A stretch of DNA of 64,000 bases from a virus: UHGV virus genome UHGV-0236300. One strand, given 5' to 3'. Numbering within the stretch: the first letter of the stretch is position 1; each line of letters begins with the position of its first letter. Shown in pieces: positions 4,963 through 64,000 of the stretch. The notes beneath the pieces are model-generated. The model did not search any database. It saw only the letters and a list, made by a program, of their open reading frames with translations, and had not been told where the DNA came from. Made by a program: the position numbers and the translations under genes.

Positions 4963-7386
4963 ATGAGCATGTGGTCGTTCGATTTTGAGGCCTCTGGCTT
5001 GCTGGAAGACCCAGATCTTTATTATCACTGCGGTTTGTTTAAAGAGCTGAATAAGAACCGTTTTATGCTGTTCCTTCCCCTAAATGACCGCACACACTAC
5101 TCTGAAGAGGATGTGGAGAAAGCTAAGAACTTCATTCTGGCAAAGAAGACCCTTTATACAGATTTTGAGGCTCGCATAGCAGATTTTTCAGAGTTGGAAG
5201 GCTGGCTTACAGGCAATTCAGACTGGTCACCTACGGCTTTGAACTGTCATAACTGCTACAGTTACGACTTTATGCTGATGGAAAGATTATCCGGTATTCA
5301 TTTTGATATGTTCCGTGATCCTAAATGCATGGGAACTATCAACGACCACCAGGTTAATCTGTTTGATACGTTAGCGATGAGTCGAATCTTGTGGCCTGAC
5401 CGCCCTTTGCCAAAAGGTTGTCCAGACGCAGTATTCAATCCAGTTACCAAGAAAATGCAGCCTGTTGGACCTCATGGTCTTATGGCATGGGGCTATGCCC
5501 TTGGTAACCAGAAAGTTCAAATCGATGACTGGCGGGAGCTTCCGCTGTGGAAGTATGTGGATCGTGTGTTCGAGGACGTTATCATTCAGGAGTTGCTCTG
5601 GAAGGAGTTGGTAGCGGAATCAAAAGGTGTATTCTACGGCAAATCTGACATGCAGAACTTTATGTACGATCCTGCCAAAGAGAAGCCGAAAGGCTTCAAG
5701 AAGATCACCTGGAAGAACGCATTACGCCGAGGCATGTTACAGCACTTCCTGATGGAGCTGCAGGCTCGACAGGGGGTGTATTTCGACATAGATGGGGCTA
5801 TTGCTTTACGTGATCGTTGCGATGCGTGGATGAAAGAGATCGCTGATCGTGTTGAACCACAGCTTCCTTTAAAAGAGTTATCAATGTCTCAGCGGCCTAA
5901 GTTCCCTGAAAAGCCGTTTAACCAGGATGGGACAATCTCCAATAATGGTTGGAAATGGTTAAAAGACAAGCTTGGCTATCCTGTGGACATGAGTGCTTTA
6001 GAATTTAAAGCCCCTCCTAAGCGAGCATTTACCTCCACAGGGGATGTAAGTAAGATGGGGATAAAATGGTGTGAAGAGATGGGCTGTAAAGACCCCGATA
6101 AGATGGCTGATTTCTTGAGGGGGTATATCAAAGGAACTTCTACACCACACCCTTTACCTAAAGAGCTGATGGATCAGGCGATAAGTGACCTACAGCAGAA
6201 GCGAATGCCTGACTGCAAGATACCCATGAAAATCAGCAATCAGGACGACATCAAGCGATACCTGATCAGTGCTGGTTGGCTCCCAACAATGTGGAGAACT
6301 AAGGATGTAACTAAGGATAGCAAGAAGAAAGCTTTACCTGATGCAGATGTTGATGCACGAGTATATGCATATATGGACGAGCTTTTGGAGTCAGAGTATT
6401 GTGACCTAATTATCAACTTCTGGAACAAAACTGATGCTAAGTTCCAGACAACTGTACATAAGTTCAGAAGCTTCCCTAACTCTGAAAGAATTAAAAAGGA
6501 AGTGTTCGGGAAAATACGTAGAAAAGCCAGAGCGCTTATTACTTCTCCGCAACTGAAAGATACGTTTGGGCACCTGTGCCCGAATCTTGAAAAATTGAAC
6601 GGAGAGATGGCTAAAGATATCGTTTTGTGGTTATCATTGCGAAACCGTAGATCGGTCCTTGATCCAATCAAGGAAGATAAGGTTGATACTGGTCTTCTTA
6701 ATCATCCACGTTTGAAGATTGACCACAAACTTCCTGCTAAAAGTTCTGGATTAACAAACACTTCCAGACAGAAACATAGTATTTGTGCAAACATGCCTAA
6801 ACCATCTCCTAAAGTGGTTATGGGTAAAGAGATGCGTAGTCTGTGGGGTGTTCCTCCGGGATACTTTGAGATCGGTATTGACGGGTCCAACTTAGAGCAG
6901 CTCATCGGGGCCTGGGGTGCCTTTGAGTTTGACAACGGTCTGTATTATGATGTTGTAAGTAACGGGGACGCGCACCAAAACAATGCTGAGGCATATACAA
7001 AAGTAGCAGGTAGAGAGGTGTCCCGTAACGATGGTAAACCTATCACGTATGGGGTTATGTATGGGGCACAAAAAGATAAAGTTGCAGATATGCTGGATAT
7101 CTCTCCCGAACTGGGGCAGAGAGTAATCGATGCTCTCTGGGATGCCAACCCAGGTCTTAAGGGGCGCAAAGAGGATCTGGAGAAATTCTGGGAAGCAACA
7201 GGTAAGAAATTTATCTACTCTTTTGACGGGCATGCTATTTGGACACGCTCTAAACACTCTTTGCTTAATGCATATCAGCAAAATGGCGGTGCATCACTGT
7301 GTGACCTAGTTGGGATACTCATGCACCACCAGATGGTGAAGCGTGGATGGTATGATGAGGGTGTTCGTCGTATTATTTATTACCAT
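4963..7386 (+). CDS. DNA polymerase, family A, exon 1 (proofreading domain, motifs A and B)
   Basis: Exo I FDFEASG; motif B RxxxKxxxYGVMYG; QQNGGASLCD segment like T7 QSAGALICK; frame hits stop at 7390-7392 just before the expected motif C. Confidence 0.85.
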
Positions 7387-22188: not shown

Positions 22189-22608
22189 ATGAACATTAAA
22201 TCTGATAATCCGGCATATAGCTTTGATAACGCTTTTTGTCACGGTCCGGCGGCGAAAGGATTCGAAATCGATGGTAAACTAATTATTGTCAATGTTGACG
22301 GGGAAGAGGTTGCAGTATATCCGGTGGCAGACGTTAAAAGCCGTCTACAATGCCGCATAGATGTTACCGCCTATCAGCTTGATCCGGTCCGGGTAGTTGC
22401 CCTGGTCCTGGAAGAAGAAATTAAAGCAATGCACCACAGCAACAAGTTTATTGGTGACGCTCAAGATAATATGCAGGTATGCCGCTATAAAGTTAATGAA
22501 GTGCTTAAAGAGTACGGCTATAAGGATTTAATGATCAAGCGCGATGAAAAATTCCGCTACCGTAACGACCTGGCAAATCGGATTTTTGAAATATACGAAT
22601 CATTATAA
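22189..22608 (+). CDS. hypothetical early protein
   Basis: 139-aa ORF, RBS TAAGAGGT. Confidence 0.55.
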   Translation: MNIKSDNPAYSFDNAFCHGPAAKGFEIDGKLIIVNVDGEEVAVYPVADVKSRLQCRIDVTAYQLDPVRVVALVLEEEIKAMHHSNKFIGDAQDNMQVCRYKVNEVLKEYGYKDLMIKRDEKFRYRNDLANRIFEIYESL

Positions 22609-22626
22609 TTTCTTAACTGAATTATC

Positions 22627-22652
22627 AAGGGGCTTAAAGGCCCCTTTCTTTT
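22627..22652 (+). terminator. rho-independent terminator
   Basis: Stem GGGGC/GCCCC with TAAA loop, then TTTCTTTTT. Confidence 0.6.
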
Positions 22653-23263
22653 TGTCTGCTCTTCTCCTACCATAAACGGCCCTACCTGGCAAGTGGAATA
22701 ATTGACTAGCCATCAATCCCACATACTGTACAAATATACATGGAAAATAACTATTGCATAATCTTTCATTGTGTGGTAGCAGGGCCATTTTTACCCGTTT
22801 TCTCTCCCAAAAGTGCACGTAATGCCGCTATTGCACAAATTTTAACCTGATGCACATCTCCAATATCTTGTCAACAACTAAAAATCTTTATAAGTCATAC
22901 ACTTACACAGCATCGAAAGCGTGTTCTACGCGAAAAATCGAGTATAACTATAGCCGCCAGATCTCAGAATTCACGTACGCACGCCATTCTATAGTCTGCA
23001 AAGTATTTATTCCAACCACAGAATAACGGAATAGTCAATACCTGCATAAAATAATTATTCGTGTAAACTGCATAACATAAATCAGCTCAGGTGTCAACAT
23101 TTTTCGTAAACAGTTCGAAATTGTCACGATAAGTTATTATACACAGAGAAATCTTTAGTCGTCTAATGTTTACTGTACATTACTATACTGACTGGAATCA
23201 TTAGATGACTAAGAGAAAGATAAGAAATAATTAATAATGTAATTGTTTTACCTGTAACAATAA

Positions 23264-23440
23264 GGCAACTATGCAAACGAATGGCATGGCGCGACGGAGT
23301 CGCGACATAATATAAAAGCAGTAACAATCACCCCCGTGATAGTTTTTCTGCAATCTATTATTCAGATCATAGTTGCCTTGTATTTAGTTAATCATGACAT
23401 AACAAGCAAGGCAACTATAGATCTTCTAATAGTTGCCCTG
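23264..23440. repeat. CATAGTTGCC direct and inverted repeats
   Basis: Motif at 23264 (rev), 23368 (fwd), 23410 (rev), 23429 (fwd); 23368-23420 is a 13-bp-arm imperfect palindrome. Confidence 0.5.
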
Positions 23441-23529
23441 CTTTTATATTATGTCATAGATTGTTATCTTGTTAATTGTTTTCATGCAAACGAATGTCAT
23501 GGCTTATCATCTCTGTGTAAACAATTTGG

Positions 23530-23585
23530 GCGTAAACTATTCAGATGAAAACTATTCAGGCGTAAACAGTCTATGCGTAAACAGT
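23530..23585. repeat. CGTAAAC(AG) motif cluster
   Basis: GCGTAAAC at 23530, 23560, 23575; also 23897 and 23105; the same core occurs in the early 5'UTR 22-mer. Confidence 0.5.
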
Positions 23586-23610
23586 GAGATATGGAATAGT
23601 AACAGCCGTT

Positions 23611-23682
23611 ATTGTGTCATATTGTGTCATTGTGTCAAAGGTAAAAGTGTCAAAAGTGACAATTTTGTCACATTGTGTCAGA
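23611..23682. repeat. TGTGTCA / TGACA iteron-like repeats
   Basis: ATTGTGTCAT x2, TGTGTCAAA, GTGTCAAAAGTGACAA, TTGTCACATTGTGTCAGAC. Confidence 0.5.
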
Positions 23683-24204
23683 CAAGTTTTTCTCCTCTTT
23701 GTCAAGTGCCGCATGAAAAATTTACAAACTGGTATGGTAGCATTTTTGCGGCCCTGTTTACATTCAGGAATGTATGTATAATCCTTGCTGTGTGGGCGTT
23801 TAGACGTCTGGACGGTCAGAAGTCAGCAGGTCAATATCTAATCTATTGGTTGCTAACTATATCCCACACAAATAGTAAGAAATATAATTGTTATGTGCGT
23901 AAACAGTAACTCATGTTATCAATCCCTGTATGTATCGCCAGTGGTGCGCATAATGGGTATTATGTTAAATTGCCCGTAATGATAACCATTCTCACAATGA
24001 TAGGTATTCTCATTCATCCCCACAAGATAGATTGCAAATGTTGTGCCACTGTGTGAACGGCCTCACCTATTAATTTGCCTCACTGCCTCGATATTTGAGA
24101 ATTATTATAAAAAATGAGAAGTATTCCCATTCCGTCCGCCTGGCAGCACTCCTGTAGGACAAGCACAACATCGGGGTATAACTGGACCTGTTCAGATATT
24201 TCTG

Positions 24205-24345
24205 GCTGACTCTTCAGGCCTGTGTGGGAAAAGCCAACCTCTCCGGCGGCGGGGAGGGGGGTCAATTAAAAAATTTACGTGGTGTATGAAGCGCTCTTCA
24301 GGCAAGGTGTGTATTATGGGATGAAACCCTCTTCAGGTGATGATA
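24205..24345. repeat. CTCTTCAGG repeats and G-rich repeats
   Basis: CTCTTCAGG at about 24211, 24296, 24330 (and 24739); CCGGCGGGGA(G/T)GGGG at 24244 and 24388. Confidence 0.4.
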
Positions 24346-25113
24346 TTTGTGGGGGGATATTTGCTGGAAAGCCAGATATGACGGGGCTCCCGGCGGGGAT
24401 GGGGTAGTACAGACAGGGAAAATGTGGGGATGTGGTGGGAGTAAATTGATCAAGTAGGTAGGATATGGAATATGTTACAAGTATGTTAAATATAGAGGTA
24501 GGATATTTGTGAGATTTGTGTGTAAAATCAAAGACTTAGGTGGTGTTGTGGTATTTTCTATAAATAATTCAAGTTTAATAGGTGATATTTGTCTCCATCC
24601 ACTTTGTGTGGTAAACAGCTCCTAATTGAATTGGTTTACAAGTGTATATAAAGTATACAAATTAAAGATATAAGAAACCCCCCTCCCCCTTCGGCTACCA
24701 TTCACCTTTTCCTCTGACTGGTACTTAAACACTTATTCAGACTCTTCAGGTTATCACCCCTATACTATATGGCAGTGACTGGTGTCCTCCGGCCCCTCTT
24801 TCGCCACCCGTCCGCTTCGCCATGCTAATGCCATAGCCAAAGGTTCGGTTGTTCACCCTGTTCACTCAGGTGTATCTCCATACCCCTTCAAACCGAAGAG
24901 AACAGAAAACCCGAATTACTCGGTAAAAGAAAAGAGAAGAACTTAATTTTATCAAGATAGGCAAGAATGTCAAGGGATGACTGCTCACTAAACAAGCAAA
25001 CAGTCATGTGTGGTAGGTAAGTAACTGGGTTGGTAGGAAATTTAGTTGGAAGATGTTATAGGTGCCTCCAGAACCTTAGCTGGGCAGCTAAACCTGCAAA
25101 GCAGACTTGTGTG

Positions 25114-62510: not shown

Positions 62511-63065
62511 ATGAAATACTTTGTAACAAGCGACACACACTTTCTCCACCAGCGGGTAATGGAGTTCGACTCATGTCAAAAACACAGATCTCAGTATGAT
62601 CACAATCTTGACAGTATGAATGCGGGAATCATCACCAAGTGGAACTCTGTTGTGTCACCTGCAGACACTGTGTTTCACTTGGGGGATATTGCGTGCACTA
62701 ATGATAAGAATATCAACAAATTGCTTCCAGATGTTCTAAATATGTTGAACGGACATATTATTCTTGTTCGTGGTAACCATGACACAAAGACGACTGTCAG
62801 AATTATGAAAGAGTTCGGTCATGAGGTTGTAGATTATTACGAGCTTCGCCACAACAAGAATTTGATCTGTATGAGCCATTACCAGTTTGCAAAGTGGAAC
62901 AGAAAGCCTCACGGATCAGTCCAACTGTTCGGTCATGCTCACGGAACCACACAGCAGTTGTTTGGCAGGCAGTTTGATGTCGGTTGGGATGTGTGGGGGA
63001 GACTCTTACCATTAGAAGAGGCATACCGTATTGCAATGAGTCTTGCTATTGACAGCGGGGAGTAA
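62511..63065 (+). CDS. calcineurin-like metallophosphoesterase (candidate 2',3'/3'-phosphatase)
   Basis: DTHF, GDIAC and GNHD metal-binding motifs; RBS GAGGA. Confidence 0.65.
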   Translation: MKYFVTSDTHFLHQRVMEFDSCQKHRSQYDHNLDSMNAGIITKWNSVVSPADTVFHLGDIACTNDKNINKLLPDVLNMLNGHIILVRGNHDTKTTVRIMKEFGHEVVDYYELRHNKNLICMSHYQFAKWNRKPHGSVQLFGHAHGTTQQLFGRQFDVGWDVWGRLLPLEEAYRIAMSLAIDSGE

Positions 63066-63112
63066 TCCCTGCTATTTTAAAGAAAATTGCCACACAAGGA
63101 GAATCAGGAGAT

Positions 63113-63463
63113 ATGAAAGATGGGGATAAGCTGCTATATCTTAAAGTCCCCCTTGAAATACTGTCTATGTCAAAAGTTTTGAATGACACAACTGGGGAGG
63201 TTGTTGTTCTTGACTTATATGACAAGATCGTATACTGCTACCTGCACAACTGGTATAAGCTTGGAGAAAATTCACGCTTCACACCCAGCACAAGGAAAAT
63301 TGCAGCAGATGTTGGGATAAAGAAAACAAAAGCAGCAGCGTGCGTTAAAACTTTAGAATGTGCAGGAGTGGTTGAAATATCCACACAAGGGAGAGGTAAA
63401 AGATGCACATTTTCCAAAGTTTTGCCACCAGAAGAAGTTATTCGAATGTCAACAACTGGTTAG
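63113..63463 (+). CDS. putative DNA-binding (HTH / winged-helix) protein
   Basis: STRKIAADVGIKKTKAAACVKTLECAGVVEI resembles an HTH; followed by operator-like repeats; RBS AAGGAGAATCAGGAGA. Confidence 0.5.
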   Translation: MKDGDKLLYLKVPLEILSMSKVLNDTTGEVVVLDLYDKIVYCYLHNWYKLGENSRFTPSTRKIAADVGIKKTKAAACVKTLECAGVVEISTQGRGKRCTFSKVLPPEEVIRMSTTG

Positions 63464-63545
63464 ACCAGTAAAAACTTAAACATCTGTACTATAAGGATTT
63501 GTATGTTTTATGTTCACTATGGAACAGAGGTTAGTAACTGTCCGT

Positions 63546-63632
63546 GATACGGACACTACTGTCCGTCACGCGGACACATCTGCCCGTAATACGGACACTA
63601 ACTGTCCGTGATACGGACACATAAAGAATATA
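63546..63632. repeat. four tandem palindromic sites (operator/iteron array)
   Basis: ACTGTCCGTGATACGGACAC-type units at 63546, 63567, 63590, 63610 (about 21-22 bp spacing), each an inverted repeat GTCCG-N5-CGGAC. Confidence 0.7.
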
Positions 63633-63660
63633 ACTAAAATAACTAAATAATAAAAAATAA

Positions 63661-63725
63661 AAGATCTAGTACTTATGGTACTAAAGTACATATACTTAAC
63701 TTATGTAGAATATACTAGATCCTAA
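63661..63725. repeat. AT-rich segment bounded by a 9-10 bp inverted repeat
   Basis: AGATCTAGTA ... TACTAGATC with internal GTACTAAAGTAC palindrome. Confidence 0.45.
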
Positions 63726-64000
63726 GCACCATGTTTTAAATTTATTACTTATTATGGGTAGTGTCGGCCCTTCATTGGCACTCGCCTACGAGGGGCGAGA
63801 TGCCGGGCCTCCATAGTGCACACAATAACAGAAGTGCATACATGCAGGACTGTTAACATGTGTGGGAGCGAAGCGATAGCGCAGGCCAAAGGCCGAGCAC
63901 TAATGTGGACCACCGACGAAAGCTTGCCAGCGCCGGAAGGAGTCGGTTGAGAGCCTCCCGCGCGAGTTCGGATAAAGTTTATGTGTGGAAACTGACAAGA

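Follow-up and report, generated by a model that had tools for sequence, protein, structure and literature searches.

The locus described here is probably the theta-type (iteron-type) replication origin of the rV5-like phages, together with a one-domain protein that would bind it. It lies at the end of a 64,000-nucleotide window (the whole stretch of DNA that was analysed), which belongs to a Vequintavirus, i.e. an rV5-like coliphage. The initial annotation had pointed out an origin-like layout of initiator, iterons and unwinding element, and comparative inference supports this reading. The dyad that forms the putative iterons is unique in the rV5 genome, and it sits beside the AT extreme of the genome and its only oriC-like 13-mer. 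The nearest solved relative of the protein is the iteron-binding domain of PLE RepA (PDB 4RO3), and O-like initiator genes of unrelated phages repeat the order of winged helix, repeats and AT-rich stretch. No sigma-70-like promoter overlaps the array, and the promoter of the gene is about 460 bp upstream, therefore simple autoregulation by promoter occlusion does not fit Vequintavirus. In the sister genera the gene adjoins the sites despite a flipped orientation.

The dyad array

An HTH-like gene followed by four palindromic units at about two-helical-turn spacing had been reported from the sequence, and this is confirmed. The units are 17-bp dyads whose starts are 21, 21 and 22 bp apart. The stop codon of the gene lies 75 nt before the first dyad; the two are adjacent and do not overlap.

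63539..63555, no strand: iteron 1, TGTCCGTGATACGGACA, farthest from the AT tract
63560..63576, no strand: iteron 2, TGTCCGTCACGCGGACA
63581..63597, no strand: iteron 3, TGCCCGTAATACGGACA, which reads TGTCCG in JEP1 and L068
63603..63619, no strand: iteron 4, TGTCCGTGATACGGACA, adjoining the AT tract

The consensus proposed earlier, TGTCCGTnATACGGACA, is exact in sites 1 and 4 but has two mismatches in site 2 and one in site 3. What the four sites truly have in common is TGTCCG-N5-CGGACA. Allowing up to three mismatches, there are nine matches in the window versus 0.27 expected, and nine is reached by none of 100 shuffles. Across the whole rV5 genome (137,947 bp), sites with at most one half-site mismatch are confined to the array.

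Half-sites are centred 11 bp from each other and successive sites start 21–22 bp apart, which places all of them on one face of the helix. The array has the make-up of iterons, namely at least three direct repeats of 17–22 bp in helical phase, and these are semi-palindromic direct repeats in the sense of PMC7145576. A scan of both strands for sigma-70-like promoters, which is blind to non-consensus promoters, found none that overlaps the array. In one record a 33-aa ORF (bas52_0217) is annotated across the array; we regard it as spurious, because its sequence is simply a translation of the repeats.

The AT tract, the 13-mer and the inverted-repeat segment

63620..63662, no strand: AT-rich tract of 43 bp with 9% GC, A-rich on the plus strand, with tandem 9-mers (ATAACTAAA twice); proposed DNA unwinding element
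63654..63666, minus strand: oriC-type 13-mer GATCTTTTATTTT, which fits the 13-mer consensus of E. coli oriC, GATCTnTTnTTTT, without mismatch
63663..63721, no strand: inverted-repeat segment, with 9-bp arms GATCTAGTA (63663-63671) and TACTAGATC (63713-63721) that are 41 nt apart

The AT-rich tract lies directly beside the repeats, as would be expected of an unwinding element. It holds the AT-richest 40-mer of the window, and no other 60-bp stretch of the complete rV5 genome is as rich in AT. The 13-mer match, to the consensus of the E. coli DUE (PMC4451416), is unique in the rV5 genome on both strands. This is not an unwinding element of the E. coli oriC type, which has tandem 13-mers and DnaA boxes: there is a single exact 13-mer, and the DnaA box TTWTNCACA is absent within 2 kb.

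The initial annotation also described an AT-rich segment bounded by an inverted repeat. Both are present, but the extreme AT tract lies between the array and the inverted repeat and not inside it. The bounded segment has 27% GC and one GATC per arm, and it holds the palindrome TAGTAC-N5-GTACTA (63667-63683) as well as TGTAGAAT, a motif similar to the -10 elements of strong sister-genus promoters. Taken by itself, the 9-bp inverted repeat does not exceed chance, since 12% of shuffles of the AT-rich stretch contain one. It is nevertheless conserved, with the segment, in all relatives (3 of 59 columns are variable). It may be an auxiliary origin element or a weak promoter.

Next to the proposed origin is a GC-rich element.

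63757..64000, plus strand: start of a conserved non-coding element, 56% GC, about 290–350 nt long and running beyond the window end

This element is a possible structured RNA: on either strand its predicted fold is more stable than that of shuffles (z -3.4 and -3.0), and 2 of 103 pairs are compensatory, the conservation being too high for a covariation signal. A check for coding found that the ORF ends differ between phages. Searches with Rfam gave no meaningful family in the window at gathering thresholds, or in the full intergenic region of L001 at E-values up to 10. The genome has a second long non-coding, repeat-rich region, at about 22.6–24.8 kb of the window, which might be a competing candidate for the origin.

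A single winged-helix domain

63049..63078, plus strand: sigma-70-like promoter before the winged-helix gene, TTGACA-18-TATTTT with TG, 10 of 12 consensus matches
63113..63463, plus strand: winged-helix gene (rV5 gp075/ORF79), 116 aa; proposed one-domain origin-binding initiator
63455..63469, no strand: 15-bp palindrome ACTGGT-TAG-ACCAGT, which spans the stop codon and is kept even in the relative with a 70%-identical protein

The promoter corresponds to regulatory feature P76, which is found at the equivalent position in the rV5 record. The palindrome is not an intrinsic terminator, because no T-run follows it.

The protein is a single winged helix-turn-helix domain, and the sequence ends after that domain. 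It scores 28.5 bits against Pfam DUF6945 (PF22182), marginally above the gathering threshold of 28, and the Iguana-type orthologue scores 28.7; the score against HTH_36 is 24.8 bits, below the cut-off of 25. An AlphaFold model was usable when built with a 15-sequence alignment, and a single-sequence model (pLDDT 38.6) was discarded. The fold is that of an N-terminal domain of the RepA_N/DnaD-NTD type. The best solved match, 4RO3, is the iteron-binding N-terminal domain of RepA from the Vibrio cholerae PLE, a proven initiator (PMC7145576). Below this match the fold scores form a plateau, where generic winged-helix regulators (MarR, LexA, CodY) are mixed with initiators. There are weak matches to PHROG 'O-like' families (phrog_678 at 0.028 and phrog_391 at 0.15), and the protein also matches phrog_270 and phrog_391 as families that were found for the array-carrying O-like ORFs described below.

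A Pfam scan of the protein found neither Phage_rep_O at E-values up to 1 nor RepA_N (PF06970). Downstream of the gene we found no C-terminal initiator domain, either as a remnant or as a separate gene. When the array-spanning ORFs were compared by tblastn with the 2.5 kb downstream, the iteron-encoded peptide was the sole match, and no informative family was found for the downstream unit, ORF77-74. A word-indexed search with the protein returned only Vequintavirus itself, a metagenome scan close relatives only, and a protein-pattern scan of IMG/VR no relatives. An exhaustive HMMER search produced a few weak winged-helix matches of mixed architecture (GIY-YIG or T5orf172 fusions, duplicated HTH_36), which say little about function.

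Conservation among relatives

Comparison with related phages had been suggested as a check, and the repeats are indeed kept among relatives. In ten Vequintavirus sequences the fraction of variable columns is 0.02 in the half-sites, 0.20 in the site centres, 0.07 in the AT tract (3 of 43) and 0.05 in the inverted-repeat element. The neutral yardsticks are 0.34 at third codon positions and 0.32 in the gene-array spacer, i.e. 32–34% versus 2% in the half-sites. Judging from these alignments, the half-sites, the AT tract and the protein are under strong purifying selection across the genus. One relative, whose protein is 70% identical, retains both TGTCCG..CGGACA and the 21-bp register, although its spacer can no longer be aligned. 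The sole relative with three sites is L067, where iteron 1 was lost by the exact deletion of a 21-bp unit.

The sister genera keep the module too, as a small winged-helix gene, one to three lineage-specific dyads (spaced 24–25 bp where at least two are present), an A/T tract and a cluster of two to six GATCT motifs. The orientation of the gene is flipped there and the gene still adjoins the dyads, which lie 10–70 bp upstream of its start. Selection across the genus, and a module that is kept in the sister genera, show a function that serves the phage itself.

The same dyad in unrelated phages and prophages

Pairs of the dyad were found in 45 unrelated phage and prophage loci (L020-L064), of which 8 are on IMG/VR contigs and 37 on bacterial contigs; by our own estimate about 0.01 would be expected by chance. 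These loci are known from sequence alone. Their arrays have two to seven sites at a spacing of 20–25 bp. In at least 9 of the 45 the array is inside an ORF of 250–500 aa, directly after a winged helix that is matched by the rV5-family profile, and the array-containing ORFs are the top matches of this profile among 1151 six-frame ORFs. An AT-rich dip is found on the C-terminal side of the array in about seven of the nine best-supported loci. Four of the five array-containing ORFs that were scanned match the PHROGs 'replication initiation O-like' or 'replication initiation protein'. The homology between the 116-aa protein and the array-spanning O-like proteins is weak, with E-values of 7e-5 to 0.07 (in a small database) and an hhalign probability of 91%.

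Alternative explanations

Could the array be an operator? An autoregulated operator array was the alternative given by the initial annotation. We consider it unlikely, though it is the strongest of the rival readings. Dimers of a winged-helix repressor would bind the four sites cooperatively and control a neighbouring promoter. The target could be the repressor's own mRNA, a transcript from the opposite strand or, through roadblock or occlusion, the unit downstream, which comprises ORF77-74 and the tRNA cluster; on this reading the AT-rich and inverted-repeat segments would serve as promoter or UP-element sequence. Cooperative phage repressors use exactly this format, 17-bp dyads that have 6-bp half-sites and recur about every two helical turns. 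The fold and sequence neighbours of the protein include generic regulators (LexA, MarR, CodY), and several database records name it a transcriptional regulator. In Iguana, GAP31, pEp_SNUABM_01, SSE-121 and Av-05 the dyads directly precede the winged-helix gene and fall in a divergent promoter region; this is the classic place for an operator, and autoregulation is plausible there. Strong promoters of those same genera have a -10 region that is matched by TGTAGAAT in the inverted-repeat segment. The rV5-like array, however, is past the stop codon and remote from the promoter of the gene, with no sigma-70-like promoter across it. The dyad occurs nowhere else in the genome, therefore the protein is not a global regulator, and the linkage of gene and sites persists while their orientation differs between genera. 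Nor does an operator account for dyad arrays inside O-like initiator genes followed by AT-rich DNA, or for an initiator domain as the nearest relative of the protein (PMC7145576). The two functions are not mutually exclusive. Iteron replicons frequently combine origin function with autoregulation, so an operator is partly compatible with an origin at this locus.

The remaining explanations are less likely still. In the least credible of them the winged-helix protein would be the small subunit of the terminase, or a helper, and the repeats with the GATC-containing AT-rich DNA a pac site; the models for this are lambda cosB (with the R sites of gpNu1) and P1 pac (with Dam-methylated repeats). 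It is common for small terminase subunits to be compact helix-turn-helix proteins that recognize repeated sites, and P1 pac relies on clustered GATC sites. The rV5 genome is circularly permuted (PMC3606486), which implies headful packaging, and a small terminase subunit is not annotated in the records examined. Yet the Pfam, PHROG, NCBIfam and PDB matches contain initiator families and generic winged helices and no terminase family. The gene has early-type neighbours (polynucleotide kinase, phosphoesterase) and follows a sigma-70 promoter, with the large terminase gene about 4.5 kb away. Furthermore, none of the phage records examined starts at this locus, and the homologous arrays elsewhere sit in O-like genes. 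It is also very improbable that the phage once captured an O-like initiator gene, of which the array and a truncated gene are a relic that has lost origin activity, perhaps kept as a decoy that titrates or excludes the initiators of competing phages or satellites with the same iteron. The layout is indeed like that of an O-like gene cut just before its internal origin, with the C-terminal domain missing, and the iteron sequence is common to many other mobile elements. But half-sites, AT tract and protein are under purifying selection, the sister genera have an equivalent module, and a pure decoy needs neither the most AT-rich tract of the genome nor the adjoining 13-mer.

A proposed mechanism

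If the locus is a replication origin, the 116-aa protein would be made early, from its own sigma-70 promoter. Its dimers would bind the four dyads on one face of the helix, and the phased complex could bend or wrap the DNA, destabilizing the adjacent 43-bp tract with its oriC-like 13-mer. Transcription out of the gene and across the origin may assist the opening, and there is no terminator-like site between the gene and the array. A T7-gp4-like primase-helicase of the phage itself (gp230) would presumably load on the opened DNA, perhaps assisted by a PIF1/RecD-type SF1B helicase (gp237). The protein has no second domain, therefore it probably does not recruit a helicase loader in the way that lambda O does. 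Of these steps, early expression from the gene's own promoter and the destabilization of the AT tract have support in the sequence, and the others are inferred.

Several observations count against an origin. The protein lacks the second domain that would recruit a helicase or its loader, it is not a member of Phage_rep_O or RepA_N and its homology to O-like proteins is weak, and the locus has one 13-mer and no DnaA boxes. In phages with T7-like replisomes, initiation is also possible without any initiator protein. As a more speculative extension, which we put forward tentatively and regard as rather doubtful, a minimal initiator that does nothing other than bind iterons would open the oriC-like element by phased bending alone, helicase entry would fall to the self-loading primase-helicase or the SF1B helicase of the phage, and the iteron and its winged-helix reader would form a portable 'origin cassette' common to phages and prophages from many bacterial phyla, in some cases fused into O-like genes and in others, such as this one, split from them.

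Significance

The rV5-like phages (Vequintavirus) are widely isolated, and are used for the biocontrol of E. coli O157 and in therapy collections. No replication origin has yet been located in them. The authors of the rV5 genome paper could not define an origin and their attempt with GC skew failed; the skew follows the direction of transcription and is therefore uninformative on this point (PMC3606486). In a search of the literature we found no publication that connects iterons to Vequintavirus.

With origin and initiator defined, the phage could be engineered, origin-based vectors or reporter replicons could be built, and defence systems that sense phage origins could be interpreted. A one-domain initiator raises a further question, which has also been raised for PLE RepA: how is the helicase delivered without a recruitment domain? 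Finally, one iteron sequence in O-like genes across distant phyla is a comparative set for studying how the specificity between initiators and iterons evolves.

Comparison with known systems

The module has features in common with several known systems and differs from each of them. PLE RepA has a C-terminal domain, whereas the 116-aa protein corresponds to the N-terminal domain only. Moreover, PLE RepA is carried by a satellite and not by a phage, and its iterons have another sequence and geometry. PLE RepA itself has no sequence similarity to RepA_N proteins (PMC7145576). The RepA_N initiators (S. aureus pSK41 and pTZ2162 RepA; PDB 4PQL, 4PT7, 4PTA, 5KBJ) are members of PF06970, unlike the 116-aa protein, whose fold scores against them are no better than those against generic MarR- or LexA-type regulators. 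The genus-specific C-terminal domain of RepA_N proteins and PLE RepA is also missing. The lambdoid operators OR and OL are likewise 17-bp dyads about two helical turns apart beside the gene for the binding protein. However, they overlap promoters, whereas no sigma-70-like promoter overlaps the rV5-like array, whose sites follow the gene.

The O-like genes with arrays in IMG/VR and bacterial contigs have identical half-sites (TGTCCG/CGGACA) around a 5-bp centre, a distantly related N-terminal winged helix and, in about seven of nine, an AT-rich stretch on the same side. They differ in that the array is translated within a protein of 250–500 aa, and in that the hosts and GC contents (41–73%) are very different.

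In lambda, four 18-bp iterons and then a 38-bp AT-rich stretch are found inside gene O; dimers of the O protein bind there, and the AT tract is opened by bending (PMC3349717, PMC7466680, PMC12663957). The lambda origin differs from ours in its iteron sequence and in its location inside gene O, whereas the rV5-like gene ends 75 nt before the repeats. The O protein has a C-terminal domain that brings in P-DnaB, while the 116-aa protein has no second domain and no match to Pfam Phage_rep_O. Both have four helically phased repeats, dyad-symmetric and about 18 bp long, with an AT-rich stretch of about 40 bp alongside, in the order winged-helix coding part, repeats, AT tract. Two proximal iterons suffice for lambda in vitro (PMC7466680), which fits the loss of the AT-distal site in L067. 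By this analogy the rV5-like module resembles a lambda-O-type arrangement, with the origin inside the initiator gene, except that here the gene ends shortly ahead of the repeats.

The array and its neighbourhood

In our best-supported reading, the array, the AT tract and the 116-aa winged-helix protein form an iteron-type replication origin with its initiator, and the comparative sequence evidence makes this probable. The elements of the locus, and a second region treated below, are the following.

Features (window coordinates)
63113-63463, plus strand: winged-helix gene, an ORF of 116 aa
63455-63469: palindrome ACTGGT-TAG-ACCAGT, spanning the stop codon of that gene
63539: start of dyad 1, 17 bp
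63560: start of dyad 2, 17 bp, 21 bp after dyad 1
63581: start of dyad 3, 17 bp, 21 bp after dyad 2
63603: start of dyad 4, 17 bp, 22 bp after dyad 3
63620-63662: AT tract directly after the array, 43 bp, 9% GC
63663-63721: inverted-repeat element next after the AT tract, 59 bp, 27% GC, ends GATCTAGTA and TACTAGATC
63666 to 63654, minus strand: oriC-type 13-mer, exact match to GATCTnTTnTTTT
63667-63683: dyad TAGTAC-TTATG-GTACTA, inside the inverted-repeat element
63757-64000, continuing about 100-350 nt past the window end (6360-6715 in the RudolfGeigy record, L001): GC-rich conserved non-coding element, 56% GC
about 22600-24800 (rV5 104013-106618): non-coding region, about 2.6 kb, where convergent transcription units meet

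The four tandem palindromic sites that the initial annotation placed downstream of the gene are indeed present far above chance: on both strands of the window the dyad motif occurs nine times against 0.27 expected, a count reached in none of 100 shuffles. Their invariant core is TGTCCG-N5-CGGACA; the longer consensus given by the annotation fits sites 1 and 4 but not sites 2 and 3. Its AT-rich inverted-repeat element needs a similar adjustment, in that a 9-bp repeat does bound a segment of 27% GC, but the 9%-GC tract precedes that segment. Tested alone against shuffles this repeat is not significant, since 12% of them have one of that kind. The dyad inside the element has the 17-bp, 6-N5-6 geometry of the iterons with different half-sites; it is single-copy in the window and may be a candidate site for a second protein. 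A 33-aa 'hypothetical protein' of phage RudolfGeigy, bas52_0217 (L001 6111-6212, window 63510-63611), is almost certainly not a gene, as its reading frame merely translates the array (…VRDTDTTVRHADTSARNTDT…).

The complete rV5 genome (137,947 bp, joined from three pieces) was scanned for dyads, AT content and 13-mers. No dyad with one half-site mismatch or none lies outside the array, and the AT-richest 60-bp window of the whole genome is the tract adjoining it. With both strands counted, the E. coli oriC 13-mer consensus GATCTnTTnTTTT (PMC4451416) is matched exactly just once, where that tract ends. No DnaA box was found within 2 kb.

The 1.6 kb around the array is shared, at 98-99.7% identity, with over 100 genomes of Vequintavirus (rV5-like) coliphages. 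Eighteen MG0656xx records titled 'Campylobacter phage' (host Campylobacter jejuni) share 98% identity with E. coli rV5-like phages here, an indication that hosts were mislabelled in this data set or that coliphages contaminated it. The gene, rV5 gp075/ORF79, follows a polynucleotide-kinase-like ATPase and a phosphoesterase, at the front of a long unit transcribed rightwards. About 1.5 kb separate the start of this unit from a major divergent junction. The rV5 genome paper looked for an origin by GC/AT skew, found only switches that track transcription direction and left the origin undefined (PMC3606486); we found no paper describing iterons, an unwinding element or an origin for rV5-like phages.

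The protein

Database names for rV5 gp075 vary between 'putative transcriptional regulator', 'replication initiation protein' and 'DsrC like protein', the second being the label already in RefSeq and PHROGs, where the protein has its own family (phrog_12838, 'replication initiation protein'). Several further PHROGs families, named 'replication initiation', 'O-like' or 'DnaD-like loader', match more weakly, in each case through their N-terminal parts. In Pfam it reaches 28.5 bits for DUF6945 (threshold 28) and 24.8 bits for HTH_36 (threshold 25). The sole significant match in the PDB sequence search is 4RO3 (E 1e-5; profile 5.7e-6), the N-terminal domain of Vibrio cholerae PLE RepA. No second domain was found in the protein, nor a C-terminal remnant or partner gene downstream.

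Conservation within the genus

Fraction of variable columns in an alignment of ten Vequintavirus sequences (protein identity down to 88%)
Third codon positions: 0.34
Gene-array spacer: 0.32
Site centres: 0.20
AT tract: 0.07
Start of the GC-rich element (63757-63800): 0.07
Inverted-repeat element: 0.05
Half-sites: 0.02

Comparison with related phages, proposed as a check in the initial annotation, thus finds the half-sites near-invariant. In a short metagenomic contig whose protein is 70% identical, the spacer is unalignable while TGTCCGTCACACGGACA is retained, with the next TGTC in 21-bp register. One gut-metagenome phage has three sites, having lost exactly one 21-bp unit, the one farthest from the AT tract. 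Together, the column conservation, the 70% relative and the exact-unit loss indicate that dyads, AT tract and inverted-repeat element are functional DNA and that the pairing of protein and sites is old.

The stop-codon palindrome and the adjoining AAAAACTTAA are also kept at the DNA level in the 70% relative, and the 50 nt beyond them cannot be aligned. We rejected this palindrome as a canonical terminator.

Sister genera

We located the module gene in seven sister-lineage phages of the Vequintavirinae (Seunavirus, Avunavirus, Certrevirus, Henunavirus, a Mydovirus-like Klebsiella phage and the unclassified A7_1), either as an orthologue (about 25% identity, full length) or as a second small winged-helix family. 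These genes adjoin one to three lineage-specific dyads, e.g. TGCTCAAATTGAGCA, ATTCCC-N4/5-GGGAAT or TGTCCCC-N5-GGGGACA, spaced 24-25 bp where there are at least two; in CR3 no clear dyad was found beside the gene. Next comes an A/T-rich stretch, in Av-05 with 40 bp devoid of G and C, and after it one to six clustered GATC sites, mostly in GATCT context and some near-matching oriC 13-mers (GATCTTTTATAAG in A7_1). Beyond the GATC cluster most loci have a strong sigma-70 promoter directed away from the module. In Salmonella phage SSE-121, an unannotated 120-aa winged-helix ORF of the PVP-SE1 gp99 family (L007 2282-2644, minus strand) adjoins the dyad/AT-rich region, with another winged-helix gene (186 aa) immediately past it; the locus thus holds two small winged-helix genes in some genera.

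In the sister lineages the gene is transcribed away from the dyads, which therefore lie just upstream of it; in rV5-like phages it reads towards them. The linkage of gene and sites thus survives an orientation flip, which argues against a DNA element whose only role is that of promoter for the gene.

Arrays of the iteron at other loci

A pattern search of 596 Gb for two adjacent TGTCCG-N5-CGGACA dyads (chance expectation about 0.01 by our own estimate) returned 8 IMG/VR contigs and 37 bacterial contigs of many phyla, with 2-7 sites 20-25 bp apart. These 45 phage or prophage loci (L020-L064, from IMG/VR and GTDB contigs) range from 40 to 73% GC and come from Actinomycetota, Myxococcota, Burkholderiales, Treponema, Kiritimatiellae and others, which points to one iteron sequence conserved across very distant hosts.

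At the clearest loci (L021, L022, L024-L027, L032, L034 and L035) the array lies within an ORF of 250-500 aa, right after an N-terminal winged helix, and in about seven of the nine a local AT-rich dip follows C-terminal of it. Four of the five array-spanning ORFs scanned (L021-L024, L026) match PHROGs 'replication initiation O-like', 'replication initiation protein' or 'DnaD-like helicase loader'. When the rV5-family profile was run against 1151 six-frame ORFs around arrays, the top matches were exactly the array-spanning ORFs, on the winged helix immediately before the array, albeit with weak scores (E 7e-5 to 0.07; hhalign probability 91%). In O-like genes the array is often translated as a VRxxD/VSGRRT-like peptide repeat.

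Other non-coding elements

The GC-rich element (in a 43%-GC phage) is nearly invariant across the genus, although rV5 itself is without its 18-nt hairpin. On either strand its folding is better than that of shuffled sequences (z -3.4 and -3.0), and it may be a structured RNA. No Rfam family matches it, and 2 of 103 pairs are compensatory, variation being too low to reveal covariation. The small ORFs that some records annotate there do not agree in their ends.

The 2.6-kb region, the 'non-coding' box of the rV5 paper (PMC3606486), holds several of the window's most AT-rich 40-mers, short repeats (GCGTAAAC and ATTGTGTCA, about five copies each) and a perfect 18-bp inverted repeat at 23304/23438. 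A terminus, a second origin or a packaging site are among the cis-acting roles it could have.

Origin, operator or relic

The initial annotation saw here either an initiator with iterons and an unwinding element or an autoregulated operator array. The former gains from phased, unique and selected dyads, from an extreme AT tract with its 13-mer, from a protein kin to an iteron-binding initiator domain and from the recurrence of the iteron in O-like genes. That the dyads are instead operators for the winged-helix protein suits their geometry and their position in the sister genera, where autoregulation is plausible with dyads just upstream of the gene. It suits rV5-like phages less well: their array is clear of promoter-like sites, and about 460 bp separate it from the promoter that serves the gene itself. 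Operators also leave the arrays in O-like genes and the PLE RepA kinship unexplained; we consider this explanation unlikely, though operator and origin functions can coexist. A relic or decoy conflicts with the strong selection and with the AT tract and its 13-mer, and seems very improbable. We give even less credence to a pac site with a small terminase, which finds no family support.

As an origin, the locus would work by binding of the 116-aa protein to the dyads as dimers, bending-induced opening of the AT tract and helicase entry at the opened DNA. Read-through transcription from the gene may help to activate it, since no terminator-like site was found between gene and array; transcription helps activate the lambda origin (PMC3017604). 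With neither a second domain in the protein nor a partner gene found downstream, the lambda O-P-DnaB route is probably not available for helicase recruitment. Among the rV5 gene products are a primase-helicase resembling T7 gp4 and an SF1B helicase of PIF1/RecD type (PMC3606486), and PLE replication also requires a phage SF1B helicase (PMC7145576); a parallel between the two is speculation.

An iteron origin with a winged-helix initiator is a well-known kind of element; what varies here is that the proposed initiator has a single domain and that its gene stops just short of the repeats. In lambda, gene O contains four iterons of 18 bp and an AT-rich stretch of 38 bp; the O protein binds as dimers, and the AT tract is opened by bending (PMC3349717, PMC7466680, PMC12663957). 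The array-spanning O-like genes have the same order of winged helix, iterons and AT tract, and the rV5 module resembles such a gene ending just before its internal origin.
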